Assembly: GCA_020848035.1 (NCBI GenBank) | Contig: JADLAX010000026.1 | Span: 256,180 to 320,179, forward strand | Direction of reading: 5' to 3' | From: Anaerolineae bacterium | Lineage (GTDB): Bacteria > Chloroflexota > Anaerolineae > Promineifilales > Promineifilaceae | DNA: 64,000 bases | Shown here: positions 11,174-56,186 of the stretch, one piece after another | Layout of the letters: each line of letters starts with the position of its first letter | How positions within the stretch are numbered: position 1 is the first letter of the stretch | Notes under the pieces: generated by a model | The model's input: only the letters and a program-made list of their open reading frames with translations | Databases searched by the model: none | What the model was told of the DNA's origin: nothing | Position numbers and translations under genes: made by a program

Positions 11174-11283
11174 AAGCCCTTTTGCTTTAGGTGCGTCGCA
11201 CCTTACATCCATTATCGCTATTGATAATAGTATTGTATTCTCAAAAGTGATAATAGTCAAGCCCTGTTCCTTAAACGGTGCAC

Positions 11284-11352
11284 GGTGAACGGTAATCGGT
11301 AAACGCCACCAATTACCAATTACCGATTACGGATAACGGATTACCGTTTACC
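11284..11352. repeat. GGTAATC/GATTACC heptamer repeat block in both orientations
   Basis: GGTGAACGGTAATCGGTAAACG ... AATTACCAATTACCGATTACGGATAACGGATTACCGTTTACC. The outer arms pair at 13 of 14 positions. Lies between the divergent regulator genes. Confidence 0.8.
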
Positions 11353-14643: not shown

Positions 14644-14646
14644 ACC

Positions 14647-14746
14647 CTCGTTCCACGCTCTGCGTGGAATGCCGTTGGCGACGCTCCGCGTCGCAAGGGA
14701 CGCAGAGCGTCCTGCCTTCATTCCCACGCGGAGCGTAGGAACGAGC
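14647..14746. repeat. MITE-like element made of four consecutive mini-hairpins closed by an outer stem
   Basis: TTCCACGC-TCT-GCGTGGAA, GCGACGC-TCC-GCGTCGC, GGACGC-AGA-GCGTCC, TTCCCACGC-GGA-GCGTAGGAA. Outer arms CTCGTTCC (14648..) / GGAACGAG (..14745). Confidence 0.8.
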
Positions 14747-14771
14747 AGAATGGGATGCCCAGCAGATAGGT

Positions 14772-14838
14772 GTCATACCCGCGCAGGCGGGTATCCATCT
14801 TCTTAACCCGGATGGATTCCCGCTTTCGCGGGAATGAC
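14772..14838. repeat. Second structured palindromic element (GTCAT..ATGAC type)
   Basis: GTCAT-ACCCGC-GCAG-GCGGGT-ATCCAT..ATGGAT-TCCCGC-TTTC-GCGGGA-ATGAC. Confidence 0.75.
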
Positions 14839-14882
14839 AATGAAAATTGTGGTCTTGCCCCTCTAAAGTTATAATCACCGCC

Positions 14883-15907: not shown

Positions 15908-17272
15908 TTGAAATCTAGCACCGTGGGCAGCCAAGAAATTTCGGAGCTTGAAGCTCAACTAGAAGAGGCCACTGATCCGCAAACCAAAATTGATCTTCTC
16001 CACGAACTCGCCTGGCATTTAACGCTGCGAGATGCCCCAAAAGCTTACCGGTTGGCGAGGCAAGCGTATGAATTATCTTCGAGTGGTGAATTTGAAAAAA
16101 CGCATTATTTACCAGGCATGGCTGGCAGTTTGCGCAGCTTCATAGCGATCAACACCGATGCGGGCAACTACGATCAGGCCCTCACTTACTCCTTACAAGC
16201 TGTTGACATCCTAGATAAAATCCCAGACGAACAAACAGAAATCAACCTGATTAAAGTAGCCGTACTGGGCACCGTCAGCTGGACTTACCGTTGTCTTGGC
16301 GAGTATGCCATCTCGGCGGAATATGCTCTGCGAGGGTTAAAACTTGCGCAAGCAACGGGGGTGCGGCAGTATGAGGGTGGTGTCCTCAACATTCTTAGCG
16401 TGATTTATGCTGAATCCAACGACCTGCCAGCCGCTCGCCAGATGGGCCAAAAGGTTGTGGAATATTGTCGTGAAGCGGGTAATTTTCGGGGGGAAAGCAT
16501 CGCTCTAAATAATCTGGCAATGACCTACCTGGAGATGGGGGATGGCCAACAAGCCTTGGCCACTTGTAAAGAAAGCTTACGGCTGGCTCAAGATCATGGC
16601 ATTGAGAAGGTGGTCATTACTGCCTTAAGTACCCTGGGGGAAATTTATCTGGGGCTGAAAGATCTGGTTAACGCAGAACAGTACCTGTTGCAAACTTTGC
16701 AGCTAGCTCGCGATAAAAAAGCGGGATCAGATGAACTGCAATGCCTGCTCCATCTGGGTAAAGTTTACCAGCTGGAGCAAAAGGAGCAGGCAGCACTGGC
16801 TGCTTTTCAGGAAGCGCTTTTGCTCAGCCAGGCAGCTAACGATCGCCGCAGCCAGTTTCAATGCCACGAATTGCTAGCGGCGCTTTTTGAGCAACAAGGG
16901 GATTTGGGCAGTGCGCTGCACCATTTTAAGCAGTACCATCTCCTCAAAGAACAGGTGTTTAACGAAACGGCCGATCACAAACTCCGCAATTTGCGCATCA
17001 GCCACGAGGTAGAAACGCTGAAGCATGAAAGTGAAATTCACCGGCTTAAAAATATCGATTTGGAGGTGGCCCTGGCGCAGGTAAAGCAACTGTCCGGGCT
17101 GCTGCCCATCTGTGCCAGCTGCAAAAAGATTCGGGATGATGCCGGGTACTGGCATGATGTCGCGGTGTACATCCGCGATCATTCCGAAGCCGAGTTCAGC
17201 CACGGCATGTGCCCAGACTGTGTGAGGGATCTGTATTCAGAGCTAGAAGAAAAACGCAAAAGTAAGAATTGA
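15908..17272 (+). CDS. TPR-repeat protein with a coiled coil and a C-terminal four-cysteine (CxxC..CxxC) domain
   Basis: TTG start. Multiple TPR-like repeats. C-terminus LSGLLPICASCKKIRDDAGYWHDVAVYIRDHSEAEFSHGMCPDCVRDLY. Confidence 0.8.
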   Translation: MKSSTVGSQEISELEAQLEEATDPQTKIDLLHELAWHLTLRDAPKAYRLARQAYELSSSGEFEKTHYLPGMAGSLRSFIAINTDAGNYDQALTYSLQAVDILDKIPDEQTEINLIKVAVLGTVSWTYRCLGEYAISAEYALRGLKLAQATGVRQYEGGVLNILSVIYAESNDLPAARQMGQKVVEYCREAGNFRGESIALNNLAMTYLEMGDGQQALATCKESLRLAQDHGIEKVVITALSTLGEIYLGLKDLVNAEQYLLQTLQLARDKKAGSDELQCLLHLGKVYQLEQKEQAALAAFQEALLLSQAANDRRSQFQCHELLAALFEQQGDLGSALHHFKQYHLLKEQVFNETADHKLRNLRISHEVETLKHESEIHRLKNIDLEVALAQVKQLSGLLPICASCKKIRDDAGYWHDVAVYIRDHSEAEFSHGMCPDCVRDLYSELEEKRKSKN

Positions 17273-17405
17273 GCAACGATACGGAAGATGGGCGTTGAGG
17301 AGATATTTCCCCCAGGGTAAAGTACTCCCTTCTGGCTTACCTGTGGTGCTGCCTGCGTTTGTTGATGAGCTGCCGCCTGCAGGCCGTGTCCATAAATCAA
17401 ACCTT

Positions 17406-17888
17406 ATGGGATGGGAATTATTTGTAAGCGAATATTCAGTAGTGATTCTGGCTGCCGTAGTAGTGAGCTGGGCAATTTGGGTTTCATCCAAAATTTACAG
17501 CTTCAAACGTCAGACAACGCTTCAAAAAGCCATTAGCAAGCCGCAACTGCGCCAATTGCGTATTCGGCTATTTAAAGGGACGTTAGTCGCTTTTACAGGA
17601 ACCATCTTGGTTTTTTGGCTCCCCACCTTGCTCCTTACTGAGCAAGATTTCCAGGTTGTGCTCTATTCTCCTCTCGTTTGCCTCCTTCCAATGATTCTCT
17701 ATACATTTGGTTATCTGCAAAGTGAAATCCAGTTTCTCCGTTTCTACAGCTACCCTTTCACCGACCAGATGGATGTTCCGATACCAGGAACACCAAATCC
17801 ACCACCCCACGCAGAAAAAAGTTTTGAAGATTTGTTGGTAGAGCTAGAAAAAGCTTTGGAAAAGTTAGAGGAAAAAGAGAGAGATTAA
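17406..17888 (+). CDS. Small membrane protein (3-4 predicted TM segments), unknown function
   Basis: MGWELFVSEYSVVILAAVVVSWAIWV.. hydrophobic segments with an acidic coiled tail. The ORF track start 17295 has an implausible N-extension. Confidence 0.5.
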   Translation: MGWELFVSEYSVVILAAVVVSWAIWVSSKIYSFKRQTTLQKAISKPQLRQLRIRLFKGTLVAFTGTILVFWLPTLLLTEQDFQVVLYSPLVCLLPMILYTFGYLQSEIQFLRFYSYPFTDQMDVPIPGTPNPPPHAEKSFEDLLVELEKALEKLEEKERD

Positions 17889-18007
17889 TCTTTGTGGTAT
17901 CAGGTTTTGAATTCGGCTTTGACAGCGCCCCAATTTCTGCGTTTTTCTTGTCTAAACCTGCACCTCGCTTGGTACGTCTATGCTTGAGCAAGAGGAGAAA
18001 TCAACAG

Positions 18008-19000
18008 ATGACTTCCAATCACCCCAAACGGCAAGCTTTCGAACCAAATCAGTCGGTCATCGACTGGCTGCTCGACGCAGACCCGGCCATGCGCTGGCAG
18101 GTGATGGCTGAACTGACCGACACACCGGCTGAGGCAGTGGCCGCGGAGCGGGCGCGGGTGGCCACCGAGGGCTGGGGAGCGGCACTGCTGGCGCTTCAGG
18201 GAGGAGACGGCCGTTGGGCCAACACCGCCTGGAATCGAGGCTGGGACTCCACGATGCATGTCCTGATGCTGCTGCACTACTTTGGCCTTGATCCGGCCAG
18301 CGAGCCAGCGCAGCGGGCGCTGCGGCTGGTGCGCGAGAAAGTCACCTGGCGCGGTAGCGGACCACCCGAGTGTGACGACAATCCCTTCTTCGCCGGTGAG
18401 CTTGAGCCGTGCATCAATGGCCAGGTGGGTGCAGCAGGCGCGTATTTCGGCCAGGACGTGCGCGGCATCGTGGCTCGGCTGCTGGGCGAGCAGCTGGCCG
18501 ACGGCGGCTGGAACTGCGAGGCCGAAAACGGCGCAACGCGCGCGTCGTTTAACACGACGATTTGCGTGCTGGAAGCGCTGCTGGAACATGAGCTCAGTGC
18601 GGGCAGCCGCCCCGAAGTGACCACGGCGCGCCAGCGTGGGGAGGCGTACCTGTTAGAGCGCCACCTCTTCTTCCGCAAATCCACCGGCGAGCCGATCTTG
18701 CGCGACCGCAAGGGCAGTGCCGCGTGGACCGAGTTTGCCTTCCCCACCTGGTGGCACTACGACGTGCTGCGCGGGCTGGAATACCTGCGCCGCGCCGGGG
18801 TGGTCCCCGACGCGCGGCTGACGGAGGCCATCGACCTGGTGTTGTCTAAGCGGGATAGTAACGGCCGTTGGCCCCTTGAAGCTCACTACCCTGGCACCAT
18901 GCCCATCGAGCTGGGTGAGACTGTGGGACAGCCCAGCCGCTGGATCACCCTACGCGCCCTGCGGGTGTTGGCCTGGTATGCCAATCGATTTGCGGAATAG
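18008..19000 (+). CDS. Prenyltransferase / terpene-cyclase-like alpha-alpha toroid repeat protein
   Basis: AGGAG RBS before ATG 18008. Repeated QGGDGRWAN, LADGGWNCE and RDSNGRWPLE motifs typical of squalene-cyclase/prenyltransferase beta-type repeats. Confidence 0.6.
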   Translation: MTSNHPKRQAFEPNQSVIDWLLDADPAMRWQVMAELTDTPAEAVAAERARVATEGWGAALLALQGGDGRWANTAWNRGWDSTMHVLMLLHYFGLDPASEPAQRALRLVREKVTWRGSGPPECDDNPFFAGELEPCINGQVGAAGAYFGQDVRGIVARLLGEQLADGGWNCEAENGATRASFNTTICVLEALLEHELSAGSRPEVTTARQRGEAYLLERHLFFRKSTGEPILRDRKGSAAWTEFAFPTWWHYDVLRGLEYLRRAGVVPDARLTEAIDLVLSKRDSNGRWPLEAHYPGTMPIELGETVGQPSRWITLRALRVLAWYANRFAE

Positions 19001-19266
19001 TTACGGCAGTTTTCCCTTTGTCCATTTTCACCACCAACTCTATAATTTTGGTGAGAGGAAATCACGATCATTTTGGACATGATGTTAACCAACCATTTCA
19101 CCTGAGGCAGGCACGTAGGCGTCGGGCGACGCCTTTGGCCAAACCACGTCGGTTGCCCCCGGTTACCTTTGCCTTCCTGACTTCCCTCTGGATGCCATTT
19201 GCGACCGCTGTCAGCTGATGTTGGCAGCGGTTTTTTGTTGTCTGCCTCCAACCCAAAGGAGGCTGA

Positions 19267-19697: not shown

Positions 19698-19753
19698 CGT
19701 GATGCGTGATGCGTGATACGTGACCAGAGGTGCATCACGCATCACGCATCACG
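19698..19753. repeat. Simple-repeat hairpin, (GTGATGC)n arms
   Basis: CGTGATGCGTGATGCGTGAT (19698..19717) pairs with ATCACGCATCACGCATCACG (19734..19753). 20-bp perfect stem. Confidence 0.9.
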
Positions 19754-19810
19754 CGCTCACTTCCATGAATACCTGAAGCCTTAAAAATTTTTCGACAACA
19801 GGAGAAAAAA

Positions 19811-20424: not shown

Positions 20425-20457
20425 AGATTGGACCATTTTTGCAAAATGGTCCAATCT
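20425..20457. repeat. Extended AGATTGGACC..GGTCCAATCT hairpin
   Basis: AGATTGGACCATTTT-TGC-AAAATGGTCCAATCT, 15-bp perfect stem between ecfS and ecfT. Confidence 0.85.
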
Positions 20458-22065: not shown

Positions 22066-22133
22066 GGAGATTGGAGATTAGAGATTGGAGATTAGGGAGC
22101 GGCCCAATCTCCAATCTCTAATCTCCAATCTCC
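22066..22133. repeat. Simple-repeat hairpin, (GGAGATT)n arms
   Basis: Left arm 22066..22093 GGAGATTGGAGATTAGAGATTGGAGATT. Right arm 22106..22133 is its exact reverse complement. 12-nt loop. Starts 1 nt after the ecfA stop. Confidence 0.9.
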
Positions 22134-22165: not shown

Positions 22166-22993
22166 ATGGACATTGTGATTGACCAAATCCAGTATCGCTA
22201 CCCCAATGGCGTCACCGCCCTGGCAGATGTGTCGCTGCGGGTGGCGGCGGGGGAGCAGGTGGCCATCGTCGGGCAGAACGGGTCGGGCAAGACGACGTTG
22301 GCGAAGCAGTTGAACGGGCTGTTACGGCCGTCTTCCGGCCAGGTGCAGATTGGCGATTGGCAAACGTACGGGCACAGCGTGGCCCAGCTGGCGCGGCGGG
22401 TCGGCTACCTGTTCCAGCACCCCGACGAGCAGCTTTTCCAGCGCACCGTGGCCGCCGAGCTGGCCTTTGGCCCGCGCAATCTGGGCTTCGACGCCACGCG
22501 CACCGCCGCACTGGTGACGGAAGCGCTGCACAGTTTGGCGTTAACGGCCGTTGCTCAGGAAAACCCCTATGATCTCAGCCTGGCCTGGCGCAAGCGGGTG
22601 GCCCTGGCCGCCGTCCTGGCGATGGACACGCCCATCCTGGTGCTGGACGAACCGACGACGGGGCAGGATGCCCGCTTCCAGGCGCTGCTGGCTGGCCTGC
22701 TGGTCCGCTGGCGGCAGGCGGGCAAAACAGTCATCGCCATCAGCCATGACATGGAATTTGTGGCGGCAAACTTTACCCGGCTGGTGGTGCTGCACGCGGG
22801 GCGAGTGCTGCGCGATGGCTTGACGGCAGAGGTGGTAGGGGAAACGGCCGTTCTCCAGCAAACTCAGGTTGAACCCCCGGCAATCACCCGGCTCGCCCAG
22901 GGGCTGAATCTGCCGCAAACCGTCTGGACCATCCCTGATTTTTTAGAGGTGTGGCGGGGAAACGGCCGTGCCCCAAAAGTGGATGGTGGTTAG
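22166..22993 (+). CDS. ecfA: ECF transporter ATPase component A'
   Basis: Walker A GQNGSGKTT, Walker B ILVLDEPT, degenerate signature LSLAWRKRV. Confidence 0.85.
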   Translation: MDIVIDQIQYRYPNGVTALADVSLRVAAGEQVAIVGQNGSGKTTLAKQLNGLLRPSSGQVQIGDWQTYGHSVAQLARRVGYLFQHPDEQLFQRTVAAELAFGPRNLGFDATRTAALVTEALHSLALTAVAQENPYDLSLAWRKRVALAAVLAMDTPILVLDEPTTGQDARFQALLAGLLVRWRQAGKTVIAISHDMEFVAANFTRLVVLHAGRVLRDGLTAEVVGETAVLQQTQVEPPAITRLAQGLNLPQTVWTIPDFLEVWRGNGRAPKVDGG

Positions 22994-23022
22994 TGGCTGT
23001 CTTGCCAGCCACCAGCCACTAA
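22990..23022. repeat. Hairpin overlapping the ecfA' stop
   Basis: TTAGTGGCTG (22990..22999) pairs with CAGCCACTAA (23013..23022). Confidence 0.6.
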
Positions 23023-23034
23023 CAATTATCAGGA

Positions 23035-23091
23035 ATTTCCCCGGAAACCGCCTGCAAGTGAAATGTTCTGGTGAACAGTTTCCGGGGAAAT
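23035..23091. repeat. ATTTCCCCGGAAAC inverted repeat
   Basis: ATTTCCCCGGAAAC (23035..23048) pairs with GTTTCCGGGGAAAT (23078..23091), between convergent ecfA' and gabD. Confidence 0.8.
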
Positions 23092-23094
23092 GGG

Positions 23095-24543
23095 CTAAAT
23101 CCCCCCCATACACAAATATTTCACTTCCAGGTACTCCTCAATGCCATACTTCGACCCCTCACGGCCGATACCCGACTCCTTGACGCCGCCAAACGGAGCC
23201 ACCGGCGTCGAAATGGTGCCGGTGTTGATACCCACCATGCCGTACTCCAGCGCCTCGGCCACGCGCCAGACGCGGCCAACGTCACGCGCGTAAAAGTAAG
23301 CGGCCAGGCCGTAGGGCGTATCGTTGGCCAGGGCAATCACTTCCTCATCGCTGTCGAAGCGGTAGAGGGGTGACACGGGGCCGAAGATTTCCTCATGGGC
23401 CATCTGCATGTGCCGCGTTGCCCCGGTGAGCACGGTGGGTTCGTAAAAGGTGCCGCCCAGCTCGTGGCGTGCGCCGCCCAGCGCCACCGTCGCCCCATTT
23501 TCGACCGCGTTGGCCACCAGCGACTCCACTTTTTCCAGGGCCGCCTGGTTGATCAGCGGGCCAACGTCCACGGCGCTCATGCCTGGCCCCACCTTCAGCC
23601 CGGCCACGGCGGCGCGGTATTTTTGGGCAAAGGTATCGTAAACGGCCGTTTGCACAAAAAAGCGGTTGGTGGCAATGCAGGTCTGGCCACCGTTGCGGTA
23701 TTTGGCGGCGATGGCTCCCTCGACGGCCGCGTCAATGTCGGCATCATCAAACACGATAAACGGCGCGTTGCCCCCCAGCTCAAACGACACCTTCTTCATC
23801 GTGTCGGCCGACTGGCGCATCAGCAGCTTGCCAATCTCGGTGGAGCCGGTGAATGACAGCTTGCGCACGGTTGGGTTGCTGGTGAGTTCATTGCCGACGG
23901 GGACGGGGTCAACGGCCGTAACCACGTTCAGCACCCCGGCGGGCAGTCCCGCCCGCGCCGCCAGTTCGGCCAGCGCCAGGGCGGAGAGCGGCGTATCTTC
24001 GGCGGGTTTGATGACCACGGTGCAGCCCGCCGCCAGCGCCGGGGCCACCTTGCGGGTGATCATCGCGTTGGGGAAATTCCAGGGGGTAATGGCCGCCACC
24101 ACGCCCACCGGCTGCTTGATGGCCAGGATGCGCTTGTCCGCCGCGTGGGCGGGGATGACATCGCCATACACCCGCTTCGCCTCCTCGGCAAACCATTCAA
24201 CAAACCCGGCCCCGTAGCGAATTTCGGCTTTGGCCTCGGCCAGGGGCTTGCCCATTTCGGTGGTCAGCAGCACCGCCAGGTCGTCAATTTCGGCCAGCAT
24301 CAAGTCATGCCAGCGGCGCAAAATGTTGGCCCGCTCCGACGCCAGCAGGCTGCGCCAGCCGGGCAGCGCCTGTCCAGCGGCGGCAATGGCGCGCCGCGTC
24401 TCGGCCGCCCCCATCGCAGGCACCTCGACGATGGTTTCACCCGTCGCCGGGTTGAGCACGGGGTACGTCTCGCCGCTGTCAGCTGCGGTCCACTGCCCAT
24501 TGATGTACGCTTCGGTTTTGAGTAAATTTTTGTTCGTCAGCAT
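23095..24543 (-). CDS. gabD: NAD(P)-dependent succinate-semialdehyde dehydrogenase (aldehyde dehydrogenase family)
   Basis: FTGSTEIGK, ELGGNAP, catalytic Cys in GGQTCIATNR. GGAG lies 8-9 nt before ATG 24543, and the track start 24555 abuts the brnA stop. Confidence 0.9.
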   Translation of the reverse strand: MLTNKNLLKTEAYINGQWTAADSGETYPVLNPATGETIVEVPAMGAAETRRAIAAAGQALPGWRSLLASERANILRRWHDLMLAEIDDLAVLLTTEMGKPLAEAKAEIRYGAGFVEWFAEEAKRVYGDVIPAHAADKRILAIKQPVGVVAAITPWNFPNAMITRKVAPALAAGCTVVIKPAEDTPLSALALAELAARAGLPAGVLNVVTAVDPVPVGNELTSNPTVRKLSFTGSTEIGKLLMRQSADTMKKVSFELGGNAPFIVFDDADIDAAVEGAIAAKYRNGGQTCIATNRFFVQTAVYDTFAQKYRAAVAGLKVGPGMSAVDVGPLINQAALEKVESLVANAVENGATVALGGARHELGGTFYEPTVLTGATRHMQMAHEEIFGPVSPLYRFDSDEEVIALANDTPYGLAAYFYARDVGRVWRVAEALEYGMVGINTGTISTPVAPFGGVKESGIGREGSKYGIEEYLEVKYLCMGGI

Positions 24544-24555
24544 TATTTTCTCCAT

Positions 24556-25182: not shown

Positions 25183-27222
25183 TTATTCTTCAACGATGAT
25201 AGTAGTCAATAAATAGGCATCCGTTGCGCCATCTGGGGTAGTAATGGGCAGGCGGTTGGTGGGGTTGGCCAGATCGTAGAGACCGAGCAGGAGGCGGTAG
25301 CTGCCGGGTGGCAAATCGCTGGGCAGGAGCAGGCCGTGATTATCCAGCACCACTGTGCCGGGCGGCCAGGTGGTGGTGAGGGCCAGGCCGCCGCCCGGTT
25401 CGCTGTCGCGCTGGCTGACCAGGTTACCATTTTCATCCAGCAGGTGCAGGAACACTTTGTAGCGGTTTTGGAGGGGTACGGCCGTTTCCCAAAACAGCGT
25501 CACCTCCACAATATCACCCGGTTGCAGGATTGTTTCACCCAAAGTGTAGCCATCTAGCACGATATTTTCGCCAAAGGGGAGGGAAACGGCCGTTGCCATC
25601 TCGGTGGCGGGCGCAGAGGGTACGGCGTAGGTGACAAAACGCACGTCGCCAACCCACTCGTCGGTGGCTTTGAAGGCGTGGGCGTCCAGCCAGCGCTCAA
25701 CCAGCCGTTCGGGATCGCGCTGCGCCTCGCCCCAGAAGATAGCGTAAATGCGGTTGTGCTGGGCGGCAATCTGGCTGAGGGCGGCGTCGATGTCGGCGGG
25801 ATTGGGGCGGCTGCGGCCCTCTGGCAGGGGAAAGACGTTGCCGTCGTCGGGGAAGTAGTAGGTGAACGCTTCCCACTGGTTGGCGGCGTTCAAAATGATA
25901 CCCGCATCGGGATGATCTTCGGCCAGAATGCGCTGGGCCATGGCGCGGTAATCGGCCCGGGCGTAGGCCGGATCGGCGTACATGTTTTGCAGCGATTGGA
26001 GCATGCCCCACGGCAGCACTAGCAGCAGCACGCCCGCCAGCAGGCGAAAGCCGCGCTGGTTGGTTTCCGTCAGCGCAGCCCCCAGCCAGATTGCCCAGAA
26101 CGGCACAGCGACCATCAAAAATTTGTAATATTCGCGGCCCGTCGTGCCGGTGGCATACATCATGACCAGCGGAATGAGCACGCCCAAAACGGGCAAGATG
26201 AGTTTAGACCGGGCGTACACCAACCCAATCCCCAACAAACCAGCCACCAGCCACAATAAACTCGCTTCTGGTTCAATTGTCTGGCCAAAGGTGAGGAAGT
26301 GGGCAACGGCCGTAACCAACTCCCCCACCCCCGGCCGGTTAATCGGATCACTGCCAAACTGGACCCAAAATGTGGGCAGCCAGGGCGCATAAAGCAGCAG
26401 CGTGGCCAGCATGAGGAAGGACCAATGCTTAATGGTTAATGGGAAATGGTTACTGGTTAATGGTTTGGGCAAGGATTGGATAATTTTGATGAGGACAAAC
26501 AGATTGTGGACGAGGAGGACGGCGGGGAAAAAGTAGTGCGTGTACAACCCCGCCGCCGCACACAGCACATACGCGCCACCCCACCACCATTGCCGATTAC
26601 CGCTCACCGATAACCGATTACCGATTACCGACCACCAGCGCAGCAGCAAAACCGTCGACAGCACCGCCCACAAACCCAGCAGCGCATACATTCGTGTTTC
26701 CTGGCTGTAATACACCAGCCCTGGATTGATAGCGACCAACCCCGCCGCCACCAAGCCCAATCTCTGTGCCCCTCTGTGCCGCCTCTGCGTAACTCTGTGT
26801 TCCGCTTTTTCCTGTTGCTGAAGCGGCCGTTTCGACACGCTCAACGCCCTTCCCAGTACAAACGTCAACGGCACCACCAACAACCCGGCAAACACGGACA
26901 GCGAACGCAGGCCAAATTCGCTGTCGCCCGCCAGCTTGCGCCACTGGTGCAGCAGCAGGTAGTAAAGCGGCGGATGAATGTCGCTGGCGGTGCCCTCGAT
27001 AATGAGCGGGATGGAGCGCTCGCTCAGCCGGGCGCTGTTCCCCTCATCATTCCAAAACGACTGCACTTCCAGATTATGCACCTGCAGTCCAAACGCCAGC
27101 AGCAAAATCGCCACCAGAAGATATTGCTTAGCCACAGAGGGCACAGAGAAATGAGAGATTTTGGGTTTTTTCTCTGCGATCTCCGCGTCCTCTGCGGTGA
27201 AATCTTTAGGCTTCAGGTTCAT
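25183..27222 (-). CDS. GT39/ArnT-like membrane glycosyltransferase with C-terminal soluble domain
   Basis: FWNDEGNSARLSER..DIHPPLYYLLLHQW and more than 10 TM segments. Carries in-frame simple-repeat insertions (see findings). Overlaps the upstream GH gene by 17 nt. Confidence 0.8.
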   Translation of the reverse strand: MNLKPKDFTAEDAEIAEKKPKISHFSVPSVAKQYLLVAILLLAFGLQVHNLEVQSFWNDEGNSARLSERSIPLIIEGTASDIHPPLYYLLLHQWRKLAGDSEFGLRSLSVFAGLLVVPLTFVLGRALSVSKRPLQQQEKAEHRVTQRRHRGAQRLGLVAAGLVAINPGLVYYSQETRMYALLGLWAVLSTVLLLRWWSVIGNRLSVSGNRQWWWGGAYVLCAAAGLYTHYFFPAVLLVHNLFVLIKIIQSLPKPLTSNHFPLTIKHWSFLMLATLLLYAPWLPTFWVQFGSDPINRPGVGELVTAVAHFLTFGQTIEPEASLLWLVAGLLGIGLVYARSKLILPVLGVLIPLVMMYATGTTGREYYKFLMVAVPFWAIWLGAALTETNQRGFRLLAGVLLLVLPWGMLQSLQNMYADPAYARADYRAMAQRILAEDHPDAGIILNAANQWEAFTYYFPDDGNVFPLPEGRSRPNPADIDAALSQIAAQHNRIYAIFWGEAQRDPERLVERWLDAHAFKATDEWVGDVRFVTYAVPSAPATEMATAVSLPFGENIVLDGYTLGETILQPGDIVEVTLFWETAVPLQNRYKVFLHLLDENGNLVSQRDSEPGGGLALTTTWPPGTVVLDNHGLLLPSDLPPGSYRLLLGLYDLANPTNRLPITTPDGATDAYLLTTIIVEE
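26424..26465. repeat. Six AATGGTT-type heptamers (42 nt) inside the GT39-like CDS
   Basis: AATGCTT AATGGTT AATGGGA AATGGTT ACTGGTT AATGGTT. Translated as ..LTSNHFPLTIKHW.. Confidence 0.85.
26594..26635. repeat. Six CGATTAC-type heptamers (42 nt) inside the GT39-like CDS
   Basis: CGATTAC CGCTCAC CGATAAC CGATTAC CGATTAC CGACCAC. Translated on the minus strand as ..SVIGNRLSVSGNR.. Confidence 0.85.
27133..27197. repeat. CACAGAG / CTCTGCG element forming the 5' end of the GT39-like ORF
   Basis: CACAGAGGGCACAGAGA ... TCTCTGCGATCTCCGCGTCCTCTGCGG. Related CTCTGTG decamers at 26761..26800, also inside the ORF. Confidence 0.7.
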
Positions 27223-35372: not shown

Positions 35373-35420
35373 GGCATTGAATTACGAATCTGCAAACGTA
35401 AGATTTTTATCAAAGATTTC

Positions 35421-35463
35421 GCAGATTACGCAGATAAAAATCTTTTCAATCTGCGTAATCTGC
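35421..35463. repeat. Hairpin of the ATCAAAGATTTCGCAGATT family
   Basis: GCAGATTACGCAGAT pairs with ATCTGCGTAATCTGC (15-bp perfect stem), preceded by ATCAAAGATTTC, between E1 and E2. Confidence 0.85.
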
Positions 35464-35521
35464 TGATTTAACTCTCTCAATTTTGTATTTTGGCAAATAA
35501 GGGAGTGCAGTTGAGGAGCAC

Positions 35522-36808
35522 ATGGCAATACAAGTCGTCATGCCCGAGATGGGCGAAGGTGTGGTTGAAGGAACCATTTCCCGCTGGCTGAAGCAGGTGG
35601 GCGAGCAGGTGGACCAATACGAGCCGCTGCTGGAAATTGAAACGGACAAGGTAACCACCGAAGCCACCGCCGAAGAGGCGGGCACCGTGCTGGAAATCCT
35701 GGTGCCGGAGGGCGAGACGGTGGACGTGGGCACCGTGCTGGCAGTCATTGGCCAGCCAGGCGAGTCGCCCCAGAAAAACGGCAAGGCCCCGGCCCAAGAA
35801 ACAACGGCCAAAGCAGAACCTGCGCCGCCGCCGACTGCACCAAAAGCACAGGCAACGGCCGTTGCCCACCACCAACCCACCGAGCGCTACACCGGCCGCA
35901 TCAGCCCCGTCGTCGGCCGCATCGCCGCCGAGCACGAGGTAGACCTGAACCAGATCCACGGCACGGGCCGCGACGGCCGTATCACCAAAACCGACATCCT
36001 CGCCCACCTCGACCAACGCCAAACCAACCCACAACCCCTCACCCCCTCACCCGTTCACCCCATCACCCCGTCACCCCTTCACCCCGTCACCCGGTCACCC
36101 CGTCACCCGGTCACCTTGTCACCTGAACTCGCCACAGGCGAGGTTGTCCCCCTCACCCCCATGCGCCGGGCCATCGCCGAGCACATGGTACGCAGCGTGC
36201 AGACCAGCCCGCACGTCACCACCGTGTTTGAGTTTGACTTTACGGCCGTTGCCCACCACCGCACTGCCCACAAGGATCAATTTGCCCGAGATGGGGCCAA
36301 CCTCACCTTCACCGCCTACATCGTCGCCGCCACGGTGGCAGCGCTGAAGCAGCACCCGATGGCCAACAGCACCTGGACCGACGAGGGGATCGCGCTGAAG
36401 CGACAAATCAACATCGGCATGGCCGCCGCCATCGACGACGGCCTGATTGTGCCGGTGATCAAGGGGGCCGATGGCATGAACCTGCTTGGCCTGGCCCGCA
36501 CCATCAACGACCTCACCGAGCGAGCGCGGCGTAAGCAGCTCCAGCCCGGCGACGTGCAGGGCGGCACCTTCTCCATCACCAACCACGGCACCTCGGGCAG
36601 CCTCTTTGCCACGCCAATCATCAACCAGCCGCAGTGCGGCATTTTGGGCGTGGGCAAAATCGAGAAGCGGGTGAAGGTGATCAACGATGCGATTGCGATA
36701 CGGCCGCTCGCCTACGTTAGCTTCACCTTCGACCACCGCATCCTGGATGGGAAAACGGCCGATGATTTTGTCAGCACCATCAAGCAGGTGATTGAAAACT
36801 GGCAGTAA
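35522..36808 (+). CDS. Dihydrolipoamide acyltransferase (E2)
   Basis: Lipoyl motif LEIETDKVTTEA. E1/E3-binding domain SPVVGRIAAEHEVDLNQIHGTGRDGRITKTDIL. Catalytic SFTFDHRILDG. GAGGAG RBS. Confidence 0.9.
   Translation: MAIQVVMPEMGEGVVEGTISRWLKQVGEQVDQYEPLLEIETDKVTTEATAEEAGTVLEILVPEGETVDVGTVLAVIGQPGESPQKNGKAPAQETTAKAEPAPPPTAPKAQATAVAHHQPTERYTGRISPVVGRIAAEHEVDLNQIHGTGRDGRITKTDILAHLDQRQTNPQPLTPSPVHPITPSPLHPVTRSPRHPVTLSPELATGEVVPLTPMRRAIAEHMVRSVQTSPHVTTVFEFDFTAVAHHRTAHKDQFARDGANLTFTAYIVAATVAALKQHPMANSTWTDEGIALKRQINIGMAAAIDDGLIVPVIKGADGMNLLGLARTINDLTERARRKQLQPGDVQGGTFSITNHGTSGSLFATPIINQPQCGILGVGKIEKRVKVINDAIAIRPLAYVSFTFDHRILDGKTADDFVSTIKQVIENWQ
36039..36126. repeat. Eleven TCACCNNN octamers inside the E2 coding sequence
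   Basis: TCAC at 36039 and every 8 nt up to 36119. Translated as PLTPSPVHPITPSPLHPVTRSPRHPVTLSP (8-aa periodicity equals 3 octamers). Confidence 0.9.
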
Positions 36809-36834
36809 ACCGACTATTGGTAGTTGGGTAGCTG

Positions 36835-36868
36835 AGCCACTCGTGAATTTCATGAGTGGCTTTTTTTT
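36835..36868 (+). terminator. Intrinsic terminator after E2
   Basis: AGCCACTC (36835..36842) pairs with GAGTGGCT (36854..36861), followed by T8. Confidence 0.85.
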
Positions 36869-36972: not shown

Positions 36973-37049
36973 TCTTGTCATTCACCTAAATATTTTTAAC
37001 TTGTAGATCAATTTCTTTCCTAAACAAACCACCTGGCTAACAACGGTCT

Positions 37050-37076
37050 CAATTACCCAATTACTTAATTACTCAA
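37050..37076. repeat. Single-arm copy of the same family (AATTACNN octamers)
   Basis: CAATTACCCAATTACTTAATTACTCA immediately upstream of the MFS start. Confidence 0.7.
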
Positions 37077-38468: not shown

Positions 38469-39647
38469 ATGCAGCAGTACGAAGGATATTTTAGTTTAGA
38501 CACGTTTTTGCTTGAAGTTCGGCTGAGGGACGGGCGGCTTACGGCCGTTTCCCCAGGTGTGCCGGAAGGGTACGAAGTGATTTTGCAGCCTACGGCCGTT
38601 CCCCACACTTTTACCCTGCTCCGTGGACCGCTGGCAGGGGTTACGGCCGTCTTCCACCACTCCCCCGACGGCAAACCCACCGGCCTGACCATCGGCGGCG
38701 AGTTTGAGCTGACTTACAGCCCCACCGCGCCGCCAACGCCGGACATCCCCACCGGGCAAGGGCTGCTGCCGCCAGAGCTGGTGCTGGACGCCGGCAAGGA
38801 AGCCGATTTTGCCGAACTGCTGGATGCGGTGCTGGGCGGCGACGGCGGGTTGTTAGACTACACCCTGCCCTACCCCAAACATGAATTTCTGCGCTACCTG
38901 GCCGCGCAAGACCGGTTCATTTTCCACGGCTCGCCCAAAGCCGACATTGAGGAATTTAGCACCCGCCGCACCTCGATGGAGCTGAATGACAAAAACGGCC
39001 GTGGCAACGTGCAGGGCATCTACGGCACCCACGACGGCCTCTGGCCCCTCTTTTTTGCCGTGGTAGACCGCGACAAGATCACCGGCTCCATCCGCAACGG
39101 GGTGCAGTTTTACCAAAACGACGACGGCGACGAGGTGGGTGTGTATCACTTCTCGGTGAACCAGGAGTGGCTGGACCAAAATCCGTGGCGCAGCGGCACG
39201 CTCTACGTGCTGCCGCGCCAAACCTTCCGACAAATGCCCATGACGGCCAGCGGCGGCCTGTCCAACGAGTGGGTCAGCGAACTGTCGGTCAGGCCGCTGG
39301 TGCGCCTGGCCGTCGCGCCGGAGGACTTTCCCTTCCTGGCCCAGGTGGGCGGCCATGATGATTCCGAGCTGATCAACCTGGGCACCCTGGGCGAGCAAAT
39401 CACCCAGGCCACCACCGCCGCCGATTTTGGCGCAGACTGTCTCAATTGGAAGCTCAGCTACTCGCCCGAATTGGGCGAAACGATTCTCAAGTACATTCCC
39501 CTGGCACAGAAGTTCATTCCGACGGCCCGGTTTGTGCTGCGTTTTGAGCCGGAAACGGCCGTCTGGCTGGAAATGTCTGGTCCACCGGCCGTCATGCAGG
39601 TGATGCGCGACCGGGTGGAAAGGCACCTGGCGGAGCGTGAAAAGTGA
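38469..39647 (+). CDS. Hypothetical protein, apparently translationally coupled to the MFS gene
   Basis: 392-aa ORF. Its ATG is 1 nt after the MFS stop. Native-looking codon usage with HIP copies read as TAV. I recognise no family. Confidence 0.6.
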   Translation: MQQYEGYFSLDTFLLEVRLRDGRLTAVSPGVPEGYEVILQPTAVPHTFTLLRGPLAGVTAVFHHSPDGKPTGLTIGGEFELTYSPTAPPTPDIPTGQGLLPPELVLDAGKEADFAELLDAVLGGDGGLLDYTLPYPKHEFLRYLAAQDRFIFHGSPKADIEEFSTRRTSMELNDKNGRGNVQGIYGTHDGLWPLFFAVVDRDKITGSIRNGVQFYQNDDGDEVGVYHFSVNQEWLDQNPWRSGTLYVLPRQTFRQMPMTASGGLSNEWVSELSVRPLVRLAVAPEDFPFLAQVGGHDDSELINLGTLGEQITQATTAADFGADCLNWKLSYSPELGETILKYIPLAQKFIPTARFVLRFEPETAVWLEMSGPPAVMQVMRDRVERHLAEREK

Positions 39648-39690
39648 AACGTGAAACGTGATTGATTCGTCATCACGTTTCACGCTTCAC
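39644..39690. repeat. Simple-repeat hairpin, (GTGAAAC)n arms
   Basis: GTGAAACGTGAAACGTGAT pairs with ATCACGTTTCACGCTTCAC (19 bp, 1 mismatch). The stop codon of the 392-aa ORF lies in the left arm. Confidence 0.85.
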
Positions 39691-39819
39691 GCCTCTTCTT
39701 CTCAAAACGGCGTCCCTATCATCCCCGGTAGGGGCGCTGTTTTTTTGCCAAACATCGAATCTGCCATATAATCCCGTCTATCTATTCACACTCTGAATAT
39801 TCTGTTTCTGAATAACATT

Positions 39820-41149: not shown

Positions 41150-41158
41150 GCATGTCAT

Positions 41159-41223
41159 TGAGTAATTGGGTAATTGAGTAATTGGCAGTTCCAGGGTTAC
41201 CCAATTACCTGATTACCCACTCA
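41159..41223. repeat. Imperfect hairpin of the GAGTAATTGGGTAATT family
   Basis: TGAGTAATTGGGTAATTGAGTAATTGG ... GTTACCCAATTACCTGATTACCCACTCA, between modA and modB. Confidence 0.75.
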
Positions 41224-43665: not shown

Positions 43666-43725
43666 ATCAAAGATTTCGCAGATTGAAAAGATTAAAAAAT
43701 CTGGTTAATCTGCGAAATCTTTGAT
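43666..43725. repeat. Hairpin of the ATCAAAGATTTCGCAGATT family
   Basis: ATCAAAGATTTCGCAGATT (43666..43684) pairs with AATCTGCGAAATCTTTGAT (43707..43725). 19-bp perfect stem directly after the LigT-like stop. Confidence 0.9.
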
Positions 43726-43780: not shown

Positions 43781-44596
43781 ATGATTGATTTTTTGTTAAA
43801 CGGAGAACGGTATCACCTGCGCTGCAGCGACGATCTGACAAAGCCGCCGCTGCTGCTGCTGCACGGCTTCACCGGCAGCAGCGCCAATTGGGATCCTCTG
43901 CTGCCGCTGTTGGGTGCGCGGCATTCGGTCATCGGGGTAGATATTTTGGGACACGGCCGTTCCGCCAGCCCACTCGATCCCCAGCGCTACACCATGCTTC
44001 AGGTCGCCGCCGACCTCATCGCCCTGCTGGATGAATGGCACATTGAGCAAACGGCCGTTCTCGGCTACTCGATGGGCGGGCGACTGGCATTGTACCTGGC
44101 CTGTACCTACCCGGAACGATTTAGCCAGCTCATCCTGGAAAGCAGCTCCTCCGGTTTGGCCACCGAGGCGGAACGCGCCGCCCGCCGCCAAAGCGACGAG
44201 GCGCTGGCCAACTGGATTGAAGCCAACGGCATCGAAGCCTTTGTCGACCGCTGGGAGACACTGCCGCTGTGGGCCAGCCAGGAGCAGCTTTCAGAAGAAG
44301 TTCGGGCGCGATTGCGGCAGCAGCGACTGCAAAACAGTCCGCTGGGTCTGGCCAATTCGCTGCGCGGCATGGGCACCGGGGCACAGCCCTCGCTGTGGGA
44401 AAAATTGCCTGCGCTAACCCTGCCCACGCTGCTCATCGCTGGCGAGCTGGACGAGAAATTTGTGGCCATTAACCAAAAGATGGTGGAACGATTGCCCAAC
44501 GGCCGTCTCCACCGCATCCTCCACGCCGGACACACCACCCATCTGGAACGGCCGTCTGCATTTGCCACGGCCGTGTTAACCTTCATGGGAAACTGA
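43781..44596 (+). CDS. Alpha/beta hydrolase, MenH (SHCHC synthase)-like
   Basis: LLLLHGFTGS, nucleophile elbow LGYSMGGRLAL, lid region RRQSDEALANWIEANGIEAFVDRWETLPLW. No other men genes in the window. Confidence 0.7.
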   Translation: MIDFLLNGERYHLRCSDDLTKPPLLLLHGFTGSSANWDPLLPLLGARHSVIGVDILGHGRSASPLDPQRYTMLQVAADLIALLDEWHIEQTAVLGYSMGGRLALYLACTYPERFSQLILESSSSGLATEAERAARRQSDEALANWIEANGIEAFVDRWETLPLWASQEQLSEEVRARLRQQRLQNSPLGLANSLRGMGTGAQPSLWEKLPALTLPTLLIAGELDEKFVAINQKMVERLPNGRLHRILHAGHTTHLERPSAFATAVLTFMGN

Positions 44597-44636
44597 GTAA
44601 TTGGGTAATTCAGGCAGACAATTACCCAATTACTCA
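44594..44636. repeat. Hairpin of the GAGTAATTGGGTAATT family
   Basis: TGAGTAATTGGGTAATT (44594..44610, includes the menH-like stop) pairs with AATTACCCAATTACTCA (44620..44636). 17-bp perfect stem. Confidence 0.9.
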
Positions 44637-44650
44637 ATTACAATAGCCAG

Positions 44651-51876: not shown

Positions 51877-51885
51877 GCGTCGTTT

Positions 51886-51920
51886 TTTCCCGGAAACTTT
51901 GGCGGAAGTTTCCGGGGAAA
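51886..51920. repeat. Second copy of the TTTCCC(C)GGAAAC hairpin family
   Basis: TTTCCCGGAAACTT pairs with AAGTTTCCGGGGAAA (one bulge). Confidence 0.75.
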
Positions 51921-55127: not shown

Positions 55128-55175
55128 AGGGCCGATTTTACCGCAGGAGAGGGTAATGTGGTAAAGAGGAGAAGG

Positions 55176-55246
55176 GGTGAGCGGGTGAAGGGGTGAAGGG
55201 GTGACAAGGTGACCGATAACCGTTTACCGTTTACCGAATACCGGTT
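55176..55246. repeat. Five GGTGANNN octamers followed by five ACCGNNN heptamers
   Basis: GGTGA at 55176, 55184, 55192, 55200 and 55208, then ACCGATA ACCGTTT ACCGTTT ACCGAAT ACCGGTT (55212..55246). The crotonase stop lies in the heptamers. Confidence 0.85.
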
Positions 55247-56009: not shown

Positions 56010-56133
56010 GGGGTAAGTGTACGAGGATGGGGGGGAAGTGGAAAGTAAAAAGTGGGAAGTGAGCAGGTGGCAGGTTTGCAAGTAGCAGGTGGCAAGTGGC
56101 ACGAGGCAGGATTGCAAAGCATCTAACGAAACT

Positions 56134-56186
56134 TCACCTTGTCACCTTGTCACCCCCTCACCCTGTCACCCCATCACCCCATCACC
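56134..56186. repeat. Seven TCACCNNN octamers (inverse orientation of the 55176 array)
   Basis: TCACC at 56134, 56142, 56150, 56158, 56166, 56174 and 56182. The LacI stop codon lies in the array. Confidence 0.85.

Follow-up and report, generated by a model that had tools for sequence, protein, structure and literature searches.

A stretch of 64,000 nt from an Anaerolineae bacterium of the family Promineifilaceae (positions 256,180 to 320,179 of JADLAX010000026.1, assembly GCA_020848035.1; hereafter the window) contains a class of palindromes, the arms of which are built from tandem copies of a short unit. Each element takes the form of a 40-80-nt palindrome with arms of 2-4 tandem copies of a relatively A+T-rich unit of 7-9 nt. 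Comparison with related loci showed that families of such elements are dispersed over non-syntenic sites, almost wholly in spacers, and turn over fast by gain and loss, slippage and flipping. The elements are probably dispersed tandem-unit palindromes of the short tandemly repeated repetitive (STRR) type that belong to a Chloroflexota lineage, the Promineifilaceae, with other units in other Anaerolineae. The best-supported view is that they are mainly tolerated in the few nucleotides after stop codons.

The hairpin at 22066-22133 is located in an energy-coupling factor (ECF) transporter cluster, the order of which, according to Pfam, is S component, CbiQ/EcfT, EcfA1 and EcfA2; it sits between the two ABC_tran genes. 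The sequence, GGAGATTGGAGATTAGAGATTGGAGATTAGGGAG-CGG-CCCAATCTCCAATCTCTAATCTCCAATCTCC, begins 1 nt past the upstream TGA. The arms of 31 nt, which are 6 nt apart, are 97% complementary, and the core forms a perfect 28-bp stem. Tandem Repeats Finder resolved arrays of (GGAGATT)x4.0 in the 5' arm and (CCAATCT)x4.3 in the 3' arm. The variant unit AGAGATT of the 5' arm has an exact mirror in the 3' arm. As RNA, the element showed a minimum free energy of -54.6 kcal/mol (z = -10.6; all folding z-scores compare the RNA minimum free energy with 200 dinucleotide shuffles).

In the census, a hairpin was defined by an ungapped stem of at least 14, at least 85% pairing and a loop of at most 30, and an arm was called tandem-periodic when its self-match at a period of 7-9 was at least 0.7. 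By these definitions the window contained 13 hairpins, of which eight had tandem-periodic arms; 50 shuffles that preserved the dinucleotides averaged 0.52 hairpins, and 0.02 with such arms (maximum 1). Stem energies as RNA ranged from -22 to -55 kcal/mol. Scanning the whole window with the Rfam covariance models gave no match at the gathering score. An initial annotation of the window had claimed long hairpins with tandem-repeat arms, and all the sites that it listed are real. Its unit length of 7-8 nt was too narrow, since units of 9 nt also occur in the window and units of 10 nt in relatives. Further sites beyond its list are the hairpin at 22982-23030 and the imperfect inverted arrays at 55160-55236 and 56036-56186 among minus-strand genes (Table 1). 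The class, for which the annotation had predicted recurrence elsewhere, was found again in each related locus set examined. The unit families are GGAGAYT, NCGCAGATT, CGTGAWR, GRGTAATT, CGGTAAT and GGTGANGG.

The ABC ATPase encoded upstream of the 22066 hairpin is 91-93% identical to proteins of metagenome-assembled 'Ca. Leptofilum gracile' and 'Ardenticatenaceae' genomes, and about 20 kb of synteny with relatives was aligned at 80-93% DNA identity. NCBI places Ca. Leptofilum in Chloroflexota, Ardenticatenia, Promineifilaceae. Judged from these matches, the host stands close to Ca. Leptofilum within the Promineifilaceae (Chloroflexota) and is no cyanobacterium. A metagenome scan for relatives of the 42-kb region returned contigs of 1.5-2 kb alone, and loci reached via homologous proteins were used instead. 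The comparison includes 11 related loci; the related loci and contigs, all from metagenome-assembled genomes or metagenome contigs, are given L-numbers (L001-L004, L030-L041 and others). Apart from this metagenomic origin of the relatives, nothing specific suggests that the hairpins are artefacts of assembly or amplification, such as fold-back chimeras. Assemblies made independently of each other share the same hairpins (the window with L003, with L001 and with L036), by which this explanation is effectively refuted; moreover, they are short and contig-internal, with intact genes on both sides.

Table 1. Tandem-unit hairpins, arrays and canonical terminators of the window, and the state of the same junction in related loci
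Feature	Position	Strand	Unit and structure	Neighbouring genes	Same junction in related loci
22066 hairpin	22066..22133		(GGAGATT)x4 arm, 6-12-nt loop, (AATCTCC)x4 arm	1 nt after ecfA1 stop (22065), 32 nt before ecfA2 start (22166); ABC_tran (Pfam) on both genes	L003 same; L001 CACGAAT/ATTCGTG; L002 GGGGCAAAG/CTTTGCCCC; L004 ~20-nt spacer, no hairpin
19698 hairpin	19698..19757 (stem 19698-19753)		(CGTGATG)n, stem 20/20, period 7, z -8.2	PCC-domain gene stop (19671) to ECF S-component start (19811)	L001 same; L002 and L004 small G+C hairpin; L003 unrelated palindrome
22982 hairpin	22982..23030		(GGTGGTT/AGTGGCT)-type heptamers, period 7	Overlaps ecfA2 stop (22993)	
35421 hairpin	about 35414..35470 (stem 35421-35463)		(AGATTNCGC)n, AGATT-type 9-mer, core 15/15, z -6.8	2-oxoacid dehydrogenase E1 stop (35372) to E2 start (35522)	L034 (CCYAATTA)n...(GTAATTGR)n 8-mer hairpin, unrelated unit
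39635 hairpin	about 39634..39692 (stem 39635-39692)		(CGTGAAA)n, stem 18/20, period 7, z -5.0	Upstream open reading frame stop (39645-39647) inside 5' arm	
41162 hairpin	about 41154..41223 (stem 41162-41216)		(GRGTAATT)n, stem 17/20, period 8, z -3.2	Solute-binding protein stop (41149) to permease (probable ATG 41240)	Different hairpin in all five genomes
43666 palindrome	43666..43725		ATCAAAGATTTCGCAGATT...AATCTGCGAAATCTTTGAT, core 19/19, extended 25/28, period 9, z -11.4	1 nt after LigT-like stop (43665); opens 115-nt spacer to hydrolase gene	L034 genes overlap (ATGA), no spacer
44594 hairpin	about 44591..44641 (stem 44594-44636)		(GRGTAATT)n, stem 17/17, period 8, z -7.9	Hydrolase stop (44594-44596) in 5' arm	L036 degenerate C-type array only; L038 GTAATTGGGTAATT...AATTACTCAATTAC
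11272 arrays	11272..11350		Imperfect inverted heptamers, 77% complementary, period 7: (ACGGTGA/CGGTAAT)n then (ACCAATT/ATTACCG)n	Between divergent gene starts	
55160 pair	55160..55236		Degenerate inverted (GGTGAAGG)n then (ACCGTTT)n	Between enoyl-CoA hydratase stop (55224, minus) and methyltransferase start (55127)	
56036 pair	56036..56186		Degenerate long inverted (AAGTGGA/GCAGGTG)n then (TCACCCYN)n	Overlaps LacI-family stop (56174, minus)	
Unpaired direct array	37048..37076	+	CTCAATTA / CCCAATTA, C-type strand of GRGTAATT family	Just 5' of MFS gene start (37082)	
E2 in-gene array	36023..36124	+	8-nt (TCACCCCN)x~12	Within E2 gene 35522-36808; encodes Pro-rich inter-domain linker PLTPSPVHPITPSPLHPVTRSPRHPVTLSP	
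Membrane-protein arrays	26424-26465 and 26587-26636	-	(AATGGTT)x6 and (ATTACCG)x6	Within open reading frame 25183-27222, 679 aa, no Pfam match	
Canonical terminator	36834-36868		13-bp stem then T8		
Canonical terminator	19203-19232		13-bp stem then T-tract		
Canonical terminator	about 39705-39745		17-bp stem then T7	13 nt downstream of 39635 hairpin	

Turnover at syntenic junctions and dispersal of the units

The comparison of syntenic spacers in relatives, a check that the initial annotation had proposed, revealed gain, loss, unit replacement, register slippage and an in-place flip. The flanking DNA is 80-93% identical, yet the same junction holds hairpins with other units or none (Table 1), and the homologues of the 22982 hairpin in L001 and L002 are hairpins of other unit make-up. 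The core and loop of the 19698 hairpin are the reverse complement of those of the L001 orthologue; the flanks are collinear, i.e., the element was flipped in place. At the ecfA junction, L003 and the window have identical 3' arms, but the variant unit of the 5' arm is one register off in L003. On this alignment, the register shift between L003 and the window is a signature of slippage.

The arm-to-arm complementarity was 100% in the cores of the 22066, 43666 and 44594 elements, against a unit-to-unit identity of 0.7-0.9. Since the complementarity exceeds the unit identity and the variant units are mirrored, the arms appear to have been copied from or corrected against each other, and not to have been expanded independently. 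Replication slippage would allow the arrays to grow and shrink, and template switching or recombination within the palindrome would keep the arms complementary; the latter process would explain both the mirrored variant units and the flipped loops. New copies at other sites would arise by a copy-and-insert route.

It might be supposed that the palindromes are purely local by-products, in which a chance seed is expanded by slippage and then duplicated in inverted orientation by fold-back or template switching, with neither dispersal nor function. The tandem structure and the register shift between the window and L003 are consistent with this explanation, the mirrored variant units are what an inverted duplication predicts, and arrays within genes swap their unit between relatives (see below). 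As relayed in PMC4679880, Mrazek found that heptanucleotides outnumber all other long simple repeats in most surveyed genomes, and his idea of polymerase slippage at heptamers fits as well. However, so small a set of units is not what independent seeds would be expected to produce, and a local origin is difficult to reconcile with the recurrence of unit families, and of a whole element of about 70 nt with its flanks, at non-syntenic sites within and between genomes. We therefore regard a purely local origin as unlikely.

The recurrence was observed at several levels. Dimers of GGAGAYT, CGCAGATT, GTAATTGR, CGTGAWR and CGGTAAT were each found at differing loci in differing genomes. The elements at 35414-35470 and 43666-43725 share an identical 19-mer and align over their full length, both with each other and with L038 7501-7560. 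The element of about 70 nt, ATCAAAGATT...AATCTTTGAT, recurs together with its flanks; the L038 copy of the 43666 element (ATCAAAGATTACGCAGATTTA...TAAATCTGCGTAATCTTTGAT, with similar ATAAATA and GATAAA flanks) lies between the genes for DAHP synthase and chorismate mutase and is thus non-syntenic. Inverted (GAGTAAY)n arrays stand at several loci of distant Anaerolineae with 64-68% G+C, a further point against local by-products; L013 has (GGACCAT)n and L006 has (ATTGGTAR)n. The density per 100 kb was 7.6 in the loci of the family, 6.1 in those of other Chloroflexota and 0.4 in those of other phyla.

A separate array was noticed in L041, a locus of 50% G+C from a relative whose N-acetyltransferase is about 60% identical to that of the window. 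The perfect 32-nt sequence GTAATTACGTAATTACGTAATTACGTAATTAC at 16296-16327 can be read both as a tandem array of 8-mers and as a palindrome with no loop, the unit itself being palindromic. It extends the GTAATT-type family to this relative.

Position relative to genes and possible effects on the transcript

Spacers make up about 12% of the window, and all the hairpins with periodic arms are located in spacers or at their edge; among the roughly 38 spacers that measure 20 nt or more, about 11 are occupied. Among seven co-directional cases, the median distance was 0 nt from the stop codon to the hairpin and 57 nt from the hairpin to the next start. Most hairpins stand 0-50 nt past a stop codon, some of them in spacers within apparent operons, namely those at 22066 (ecfA1-ecfA2), 35421 (E1-E2) and 41162 (solute-binding protein-permease). 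At the junction of the LigT-like and hydrolase genes, the true start of the hydrolase in the window is ATG 43781, reading MIDFLLNG. The placement at gene ends described in the initial annotation was supported for the class, but it does not hold for 11272-11350, around which a minus-strand HTH_20 gene and a plus-strand BTAD/TPR gene diverge, with promoter-like sites flanking the arrays. Its remark that several hairpins include or abut stop codons was confirmed: stop codons lie within the 5' arms of 39635 and 44594, and 22982 overlaps the ecfA2 stop. Paired, inverted arrays (about 11) dominate over unpaired ones (1-2) between the genes of the window.

Out of three reading frames, the 5' arms of the GTGA/GTAA families close two or three (in four of five cases all of them), and the 3' arms none or one. 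It is partly for this reason that open reading frames (ORFs) end at or inside the 5' arm. As a general cause of stop adjacency, stop codons within the units were rejected, since they fail for the AGATT families at 22066, 35421 and 43666. A rule that the G-rich arm comes first was rejected as well. All 11 sites of the window are G-first, but L034 (E1-E2) and L001 (ecfA) are C-first, and the count in other Chloroflexota is 5 to 4. The order of the arms is independent of the strand because a palindrome reads alike on both strands.

The initial annotation had noted that most of the hairpins lack a T-tract, and this is correct: the 8 nt after the stems contain 1-5 T and no T-run. Its claim that the terminator at 36835 is the only canonical one did not hold, since those at 19203-19232 and about 39705-39745 are canonical too. 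A terminator consensus scan picked those at 36834 and 19203 and none of the tandem-unit hairpins. The terminator at about 39705 is present in all four relatives at the junction (L034, L036, L037 and L039). In L036 and L039 its stem sequences differ with the pairing kept, and the loop TCATCCCCGG is identical in the window, L034 and L036. The heptamer hairpin at the 39635 junction was detected among these four relatives only in L036; L034 has non-hairpin repeats, L037 has none, and in L039 the scan detected the terminator alone. A promoter-like site that matches 11 of 12 consensus positions follows the terminator at 39745-39772.

These data bear on the possibility, raised in the initial annotation, that the hairpins end transcription units as intrinsic terminators of the T-tract-independent ('I-shaped') kind. 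Their location right after stop codons (median 0 nt) and the very stable stems would suit such a role, and with the T-tract mostly missing any termination must do without one. Three of the hairpins, however, lie between genes of one complex or transporter, and one lies between divergent promoters. From the nature of these complexes, the subunits would be expected to be co-expressed, and a strong terminator within the pair ecfA1-ecfA2 or the pair E1-E2 would fit poorly with that. The canonical terminator 13 nt after the 39635 hairpin is conserved in four relatives and the hairpin is not; the window has at least three canonical terminators with a stem and T-tract; and the hairpins are missing or replaced in close relatives of equal gene order. 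T-tract-independent termination is thus unsupported, and we consider it quite unlikely as the role of the class. The tandem-unit hairpins are probably not the transcription terminators of this organism, and long perfect hairpins at gene ends should not be taken for terminators in the annotation of Chloroflexota genomes.

Repetitive extragenic palindromic (REP) stem-loops stabilise upstream mRNA against 3' exonucleases. By analogy, a REP-like effect of the hairpins on RNA stability or processing is plausible: when transcribed within an mRNA, they would fold into stems, the likeliest effect of which would be that of a barrier to 3'-to-5' exonucleases, an entry site for RNase III or a pause. Such an effect would tune the stability of the upstream cistron and not end transcription. 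Many of the copies may be effectively neutral passengers.

Alternatively, the hairpins might be selected mRNA modules, in which any strong hairpin serves as a stabiliser, an RNase III site or a translational uncoupler that sets protein ratios. The same junctions repeatedly hold non-homologous hairpins in relatives, and the hairpins are as near to the upstream stop as REP stabilisers are. The perfect stems of 19-31 bp meet the length of an RNase III substrate, and the GTGA/GTAA 5' arms mostly shut all three reading frames. On the other hand, L004 and L034 have no hairpin where the genes abut or overlap. Orthologous hairpins show flips and slippage and no compensatory changes, and the folding energy shows no strand asymmetry. 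A general requirement for a hairpin in ECF operons was also rejected, because distant Chloroflexota have a fused EcfA1A2 directly before EcfT with no hairpin. Selection for such modules is therefore an improbable explanation of the class as a whole.

We return to the view that the elements are dispersed STRR-type palindromes, mainly tolerated after stop codons. Some points weigh against it. Non-homologous hairpins occupy the same junction in most relatives (five of five genomes between the solute-binding protein gene and the next gene, four of five between ecfA1 and ecfA2), and this repeated occupation could mean selection for some hairpin there. The window ORFs, the hairpin flanks and the junctions revealed no transposase, target-site duplication or conserved terminal motif, and for this reason the dispersal step is inferred only. 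In particular, the flanks of nine hairpins share no conserved motif, and the comparison of filled and empty sites (LigT-hydrolase and ecfA1-ecfA2) yielded only an ambiguous GATAAAT repeat, which overlaps the palindrome and is unconvincing as a duplication. Every RNA-level effect of the hairpins is conjecture. The folding energies and G:U counts are about equal on both strands at all 11 sites, giving no sign of strand-specific selection. Finally, the census spans about 290 kb of one family and not a whole genome.

Arrays within genes and other repeats of the region

Tandem arrays were also found within genes. The unit number of the E2 array is about 12 in the window, at least 7 in L034 and 2 in L039. 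From this variation in copy number, the length of the E2 linker appears to be set by repeat expansion, with a period that is no multiple of three. In the arrays of the 679-aa gene, exactly those units that would give an in-frame TAA are altered to TTA or CAA. At what is apparently the same place in relatives, judged by the conserved alignment, the units are different (ACCGTTY at L001 14519 and ACTGATT at L002 14336). C-type (AATCTCC)n arrays lie within a PMT_2 gene in L036 and L039.

Palindromes of other kinds are present in the same region. The octamer palindrome ACGGCCGT occurs 106 times in the 64 kb, where dinucleotide shuffles predict about 1.5 (maximum 5). No other octamer comes near this number. 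The palindrome is found in genes and spacers (e.g., at 2042, 20321, 22011, 32880 and 36869), and has the extended consensus GGaAACGGCCGTTtCC. It also occurs in L001-L004 and L030-L041; every ~20-kb locus of the family has 15-20 copies per 10 kb, against about 0 in other Chloroflexota and other phyla. ACGGCCGT seems to be a counterpart of HIP1, the highly iterated palindrome of cyanobacteria; it is unmentioned in the paper of Elhai (2015) on highly iterated palindromes. The lineage thus combines both hallmark repeat types of cyanobacteria, a highly iterated palindrome and STRR-like arrays, which together may point to a shared feature of DNA metabolism and not to a cyanobacterial peculiarity.

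Between the genes for the ECF S component and EcfT, a non-tandem perfect hairpin of 15 bp (AGATTGGACCATTTT tgc AAAATGGTCCAATCT, 20425-20457) recurs unchanged in L001 and almost unchanged in L004. This conservation sets it apart from the tandem-unit hairpins, and on this ground it may be functional. Its ends, AGATTGG/CCAATCT, are common to the palindrome at 2139-2171 and to the GGAGATT unit. The spacer at 14644-14846 is densely filled with G+C-rich composite palindromes that are REP-like. One of them, GTCATACCCGCGMAGGCGGGTATCCA...TGGATTCCCGCYTTCGCGGGAATGAC, is also present at another locus, L036 6143-6210, and the same junction in L001 has a tandem-unit hairpin of 10-mers instead. A second small palindrome family, TTTCCSGGRAAA, forms hairpins at 23035-23091 and 51885-51920 (4 matches against 0.01 expected), one of which stands between the convergent genes for EcfA2 and aldehyde dehydrogenase. 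Nothing in L001 or L002 aligns with the aldehyde dehydrogenase gene (23095-24555, minus strand). At 17273-19009, two ORFs without a Pfam match (17295-17888 and 17894-19000) are unaligned in all of L001-L004.

Comparison with known repeat systems

Cyanobacterial STRR sequences were reportedly described by Mazel et al. in 1990. The classical units are CCCCAGT, TTGGTCA and CAACAGT, and the hosts are filamentous heterocystous cyanobacteria. STRR units are usually 7 bp, and heptamer arrays that form hairpins are 'not unusual in filamentous cyanobacteria', e.g., in the hupS-hupL spacer; their function is unknown, and transcript stability or translational coupling has been suggested (PMC2670836). The resemblance to STRR sequences that the initial annotation had pointed out is therefore apt. 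The inverted organisation of the arrays, which it took to be special, was already known, both from these cyanobacterial hairpins and from convergent pairs in Xanthomonas. As in STRR sequences, the window shows tandem units of about 7 nt (period 7 at 19698, 22066, 22982, 39635 and 11272), several families at dispersed, mainly intergenic sites, hairpins between genes that are apparently co-transcribed, and an unknown function. The differences are the cyanobacterial hosts of STRR sequences, the common occurrence of units of 8-10 nt, and the dominance of the paired form among the intergenic arrays. Tandem dimers of the classical STRR units were absent from the approximately 290 kb of family loci, as were those of TAACTGA.

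In two Xanthomonas genomes, 186 and 183 (GGGANTN)n arrays, mostly of four units, were described, with 70 and 75 convergent pairs on opposite strands that are able to form stem-loops (Rehm et al. 2015, PMC4692102). These arrays are 89-93% intergenic, and the average distance to the ORF is 28 nt on the upstream side and 160 nt on the downstream side; for 83% of the repeats in X. campestris (Xcc), X. citri (Xac) has retained the context (PMC4692102). They resemble the elements of the window in the heptamers, the number of about four units per array, the convergent pairs that could form a stem-loop or cruciform, the nearness to the upstream ORF and the variation in length between species. The units GGAGATT and GGTAATC of the window are also similar in flavour (G-G-x-A/G-A-T-Y) to the GGGAATC of Xanthomonas. 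Xanthomonas, however, has one dominant unit with a G3 tract, read as G-quadruplex-forming, whereas the window has at least six families, mostly without G3, and turnover is visibly faster in the lineage of the window. Tandem dimers of GGGAATC, GGGGATT and GGGGACT were not found, and arrays that contain GGGG are limited to 36023, 55171 and 56150.

The Xanthomonas comparison raises the question of a role at the DNA level, in which the elements would act as G-quadruplexes, cruciforms or tandem protein-binding sites. The heptamer arrays of Xanthomonas and Nostoc form G-quadruplexes in vitro (PMC4692102), and the window has the three (GGGGTGA)-like arrays at 36023, 55171 and 56150. Nevertheless, the hairpin units GGAGATT, CGTGATG, GTGAAAC, GRGTAATT and CGCAGATT contain no G3 tracts. 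The period of 7-9 bp mismatches the helical repeat of DNA, so that tandem binding on one face is unlikely, and the diversity of the units speaks against a single sequence-specific binding protein. Taken together, these points make a DNA-level role very unlikely.

The TAACTGA heptamers of Beggiatoaceae, cyanobacteria and Bacteroidetes form 169 direct sets against 1 inverted, just upstream of starts (MacGregor 2015, PMC4679880). They share with the window the intergenic heptamer arrays (2-6 copies, in filamentous bacteria), a scattered phylogeny and an unknown mechanism. Those repeats, however, are direct and precede starts, whereas the elements of the window are inverted pairs just after stops. 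REPs, as far as PMC3733652 describes them, consist of one imperfect palindrome each and carry a conserved head, GTAG or CGTC. Together with the bacterial interspersed mosaic elements of enterobacteria and pseudomonads and the REPINs associated with RAYT, they resemble the elements of the window as short extragenic palindromes in dispersed families at gene 3' ends and inside operons. They differ in that the arms in the window are tandem units and that no GTAG or CGTC head was found in the flanks of nine hairpins; RAYT and other transposase families were absent among roughly 40 window ORFs scanned against Pfam.

Integron attC sites, miniature inverted-repeat transposable elements and CRISPR were rejected on anatomy: the extrahelical-base or R/L box pattern, long terminal repeats with duplications, and spacer arrays are all missing, and the neighbours are housekeeping operons. 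The small dispersed repeats of Nostoc (Elhai et al. 2008) are said to be under 30 nt, seemingly mobile and found in hairpin-forming contexts with no known transposase; they are reportedly defined by conserved sequences of 21-27 nt, not by tandem-unit arms.

We give a small chance to a bolder explanation, that an undescribed trans-acting system makes and spreads the palindromes, or, in a weaker version, that they are selected intercistronic RNA modules of which the structure and not the sequence is conserved. If it existed, such a system would span phyla, from filamentous cyanobacteria (STRR) and Xanthomonas (GGGAATC pairs) to the Chloroflexota of the window. It would explain the few unit families per genome, the perfect complementarity of the arms and the insertion at or near stop codons. 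Candidates would be a nuclease or transposase that is specific for hairpins and has been domesticated, or a polymerase activity that switches templates.

STRR sequences entered the literature in 1990 and their inverted-pair form by 2015 at the latest, and neither the origin nor the function is understood. In our searches of the literature we found no account of such elements from Chloroflexota. The many closely related genomes of activated-sludge Promineifilaceae offer a tractable comparative system in which to ask whether elements of this kind are mobile, self-generating or selected. To the cyanobacterial STRR sequences and the Xanthomonas repeats, the window adds a third unrelated phylum with the same architecture and many unit families.

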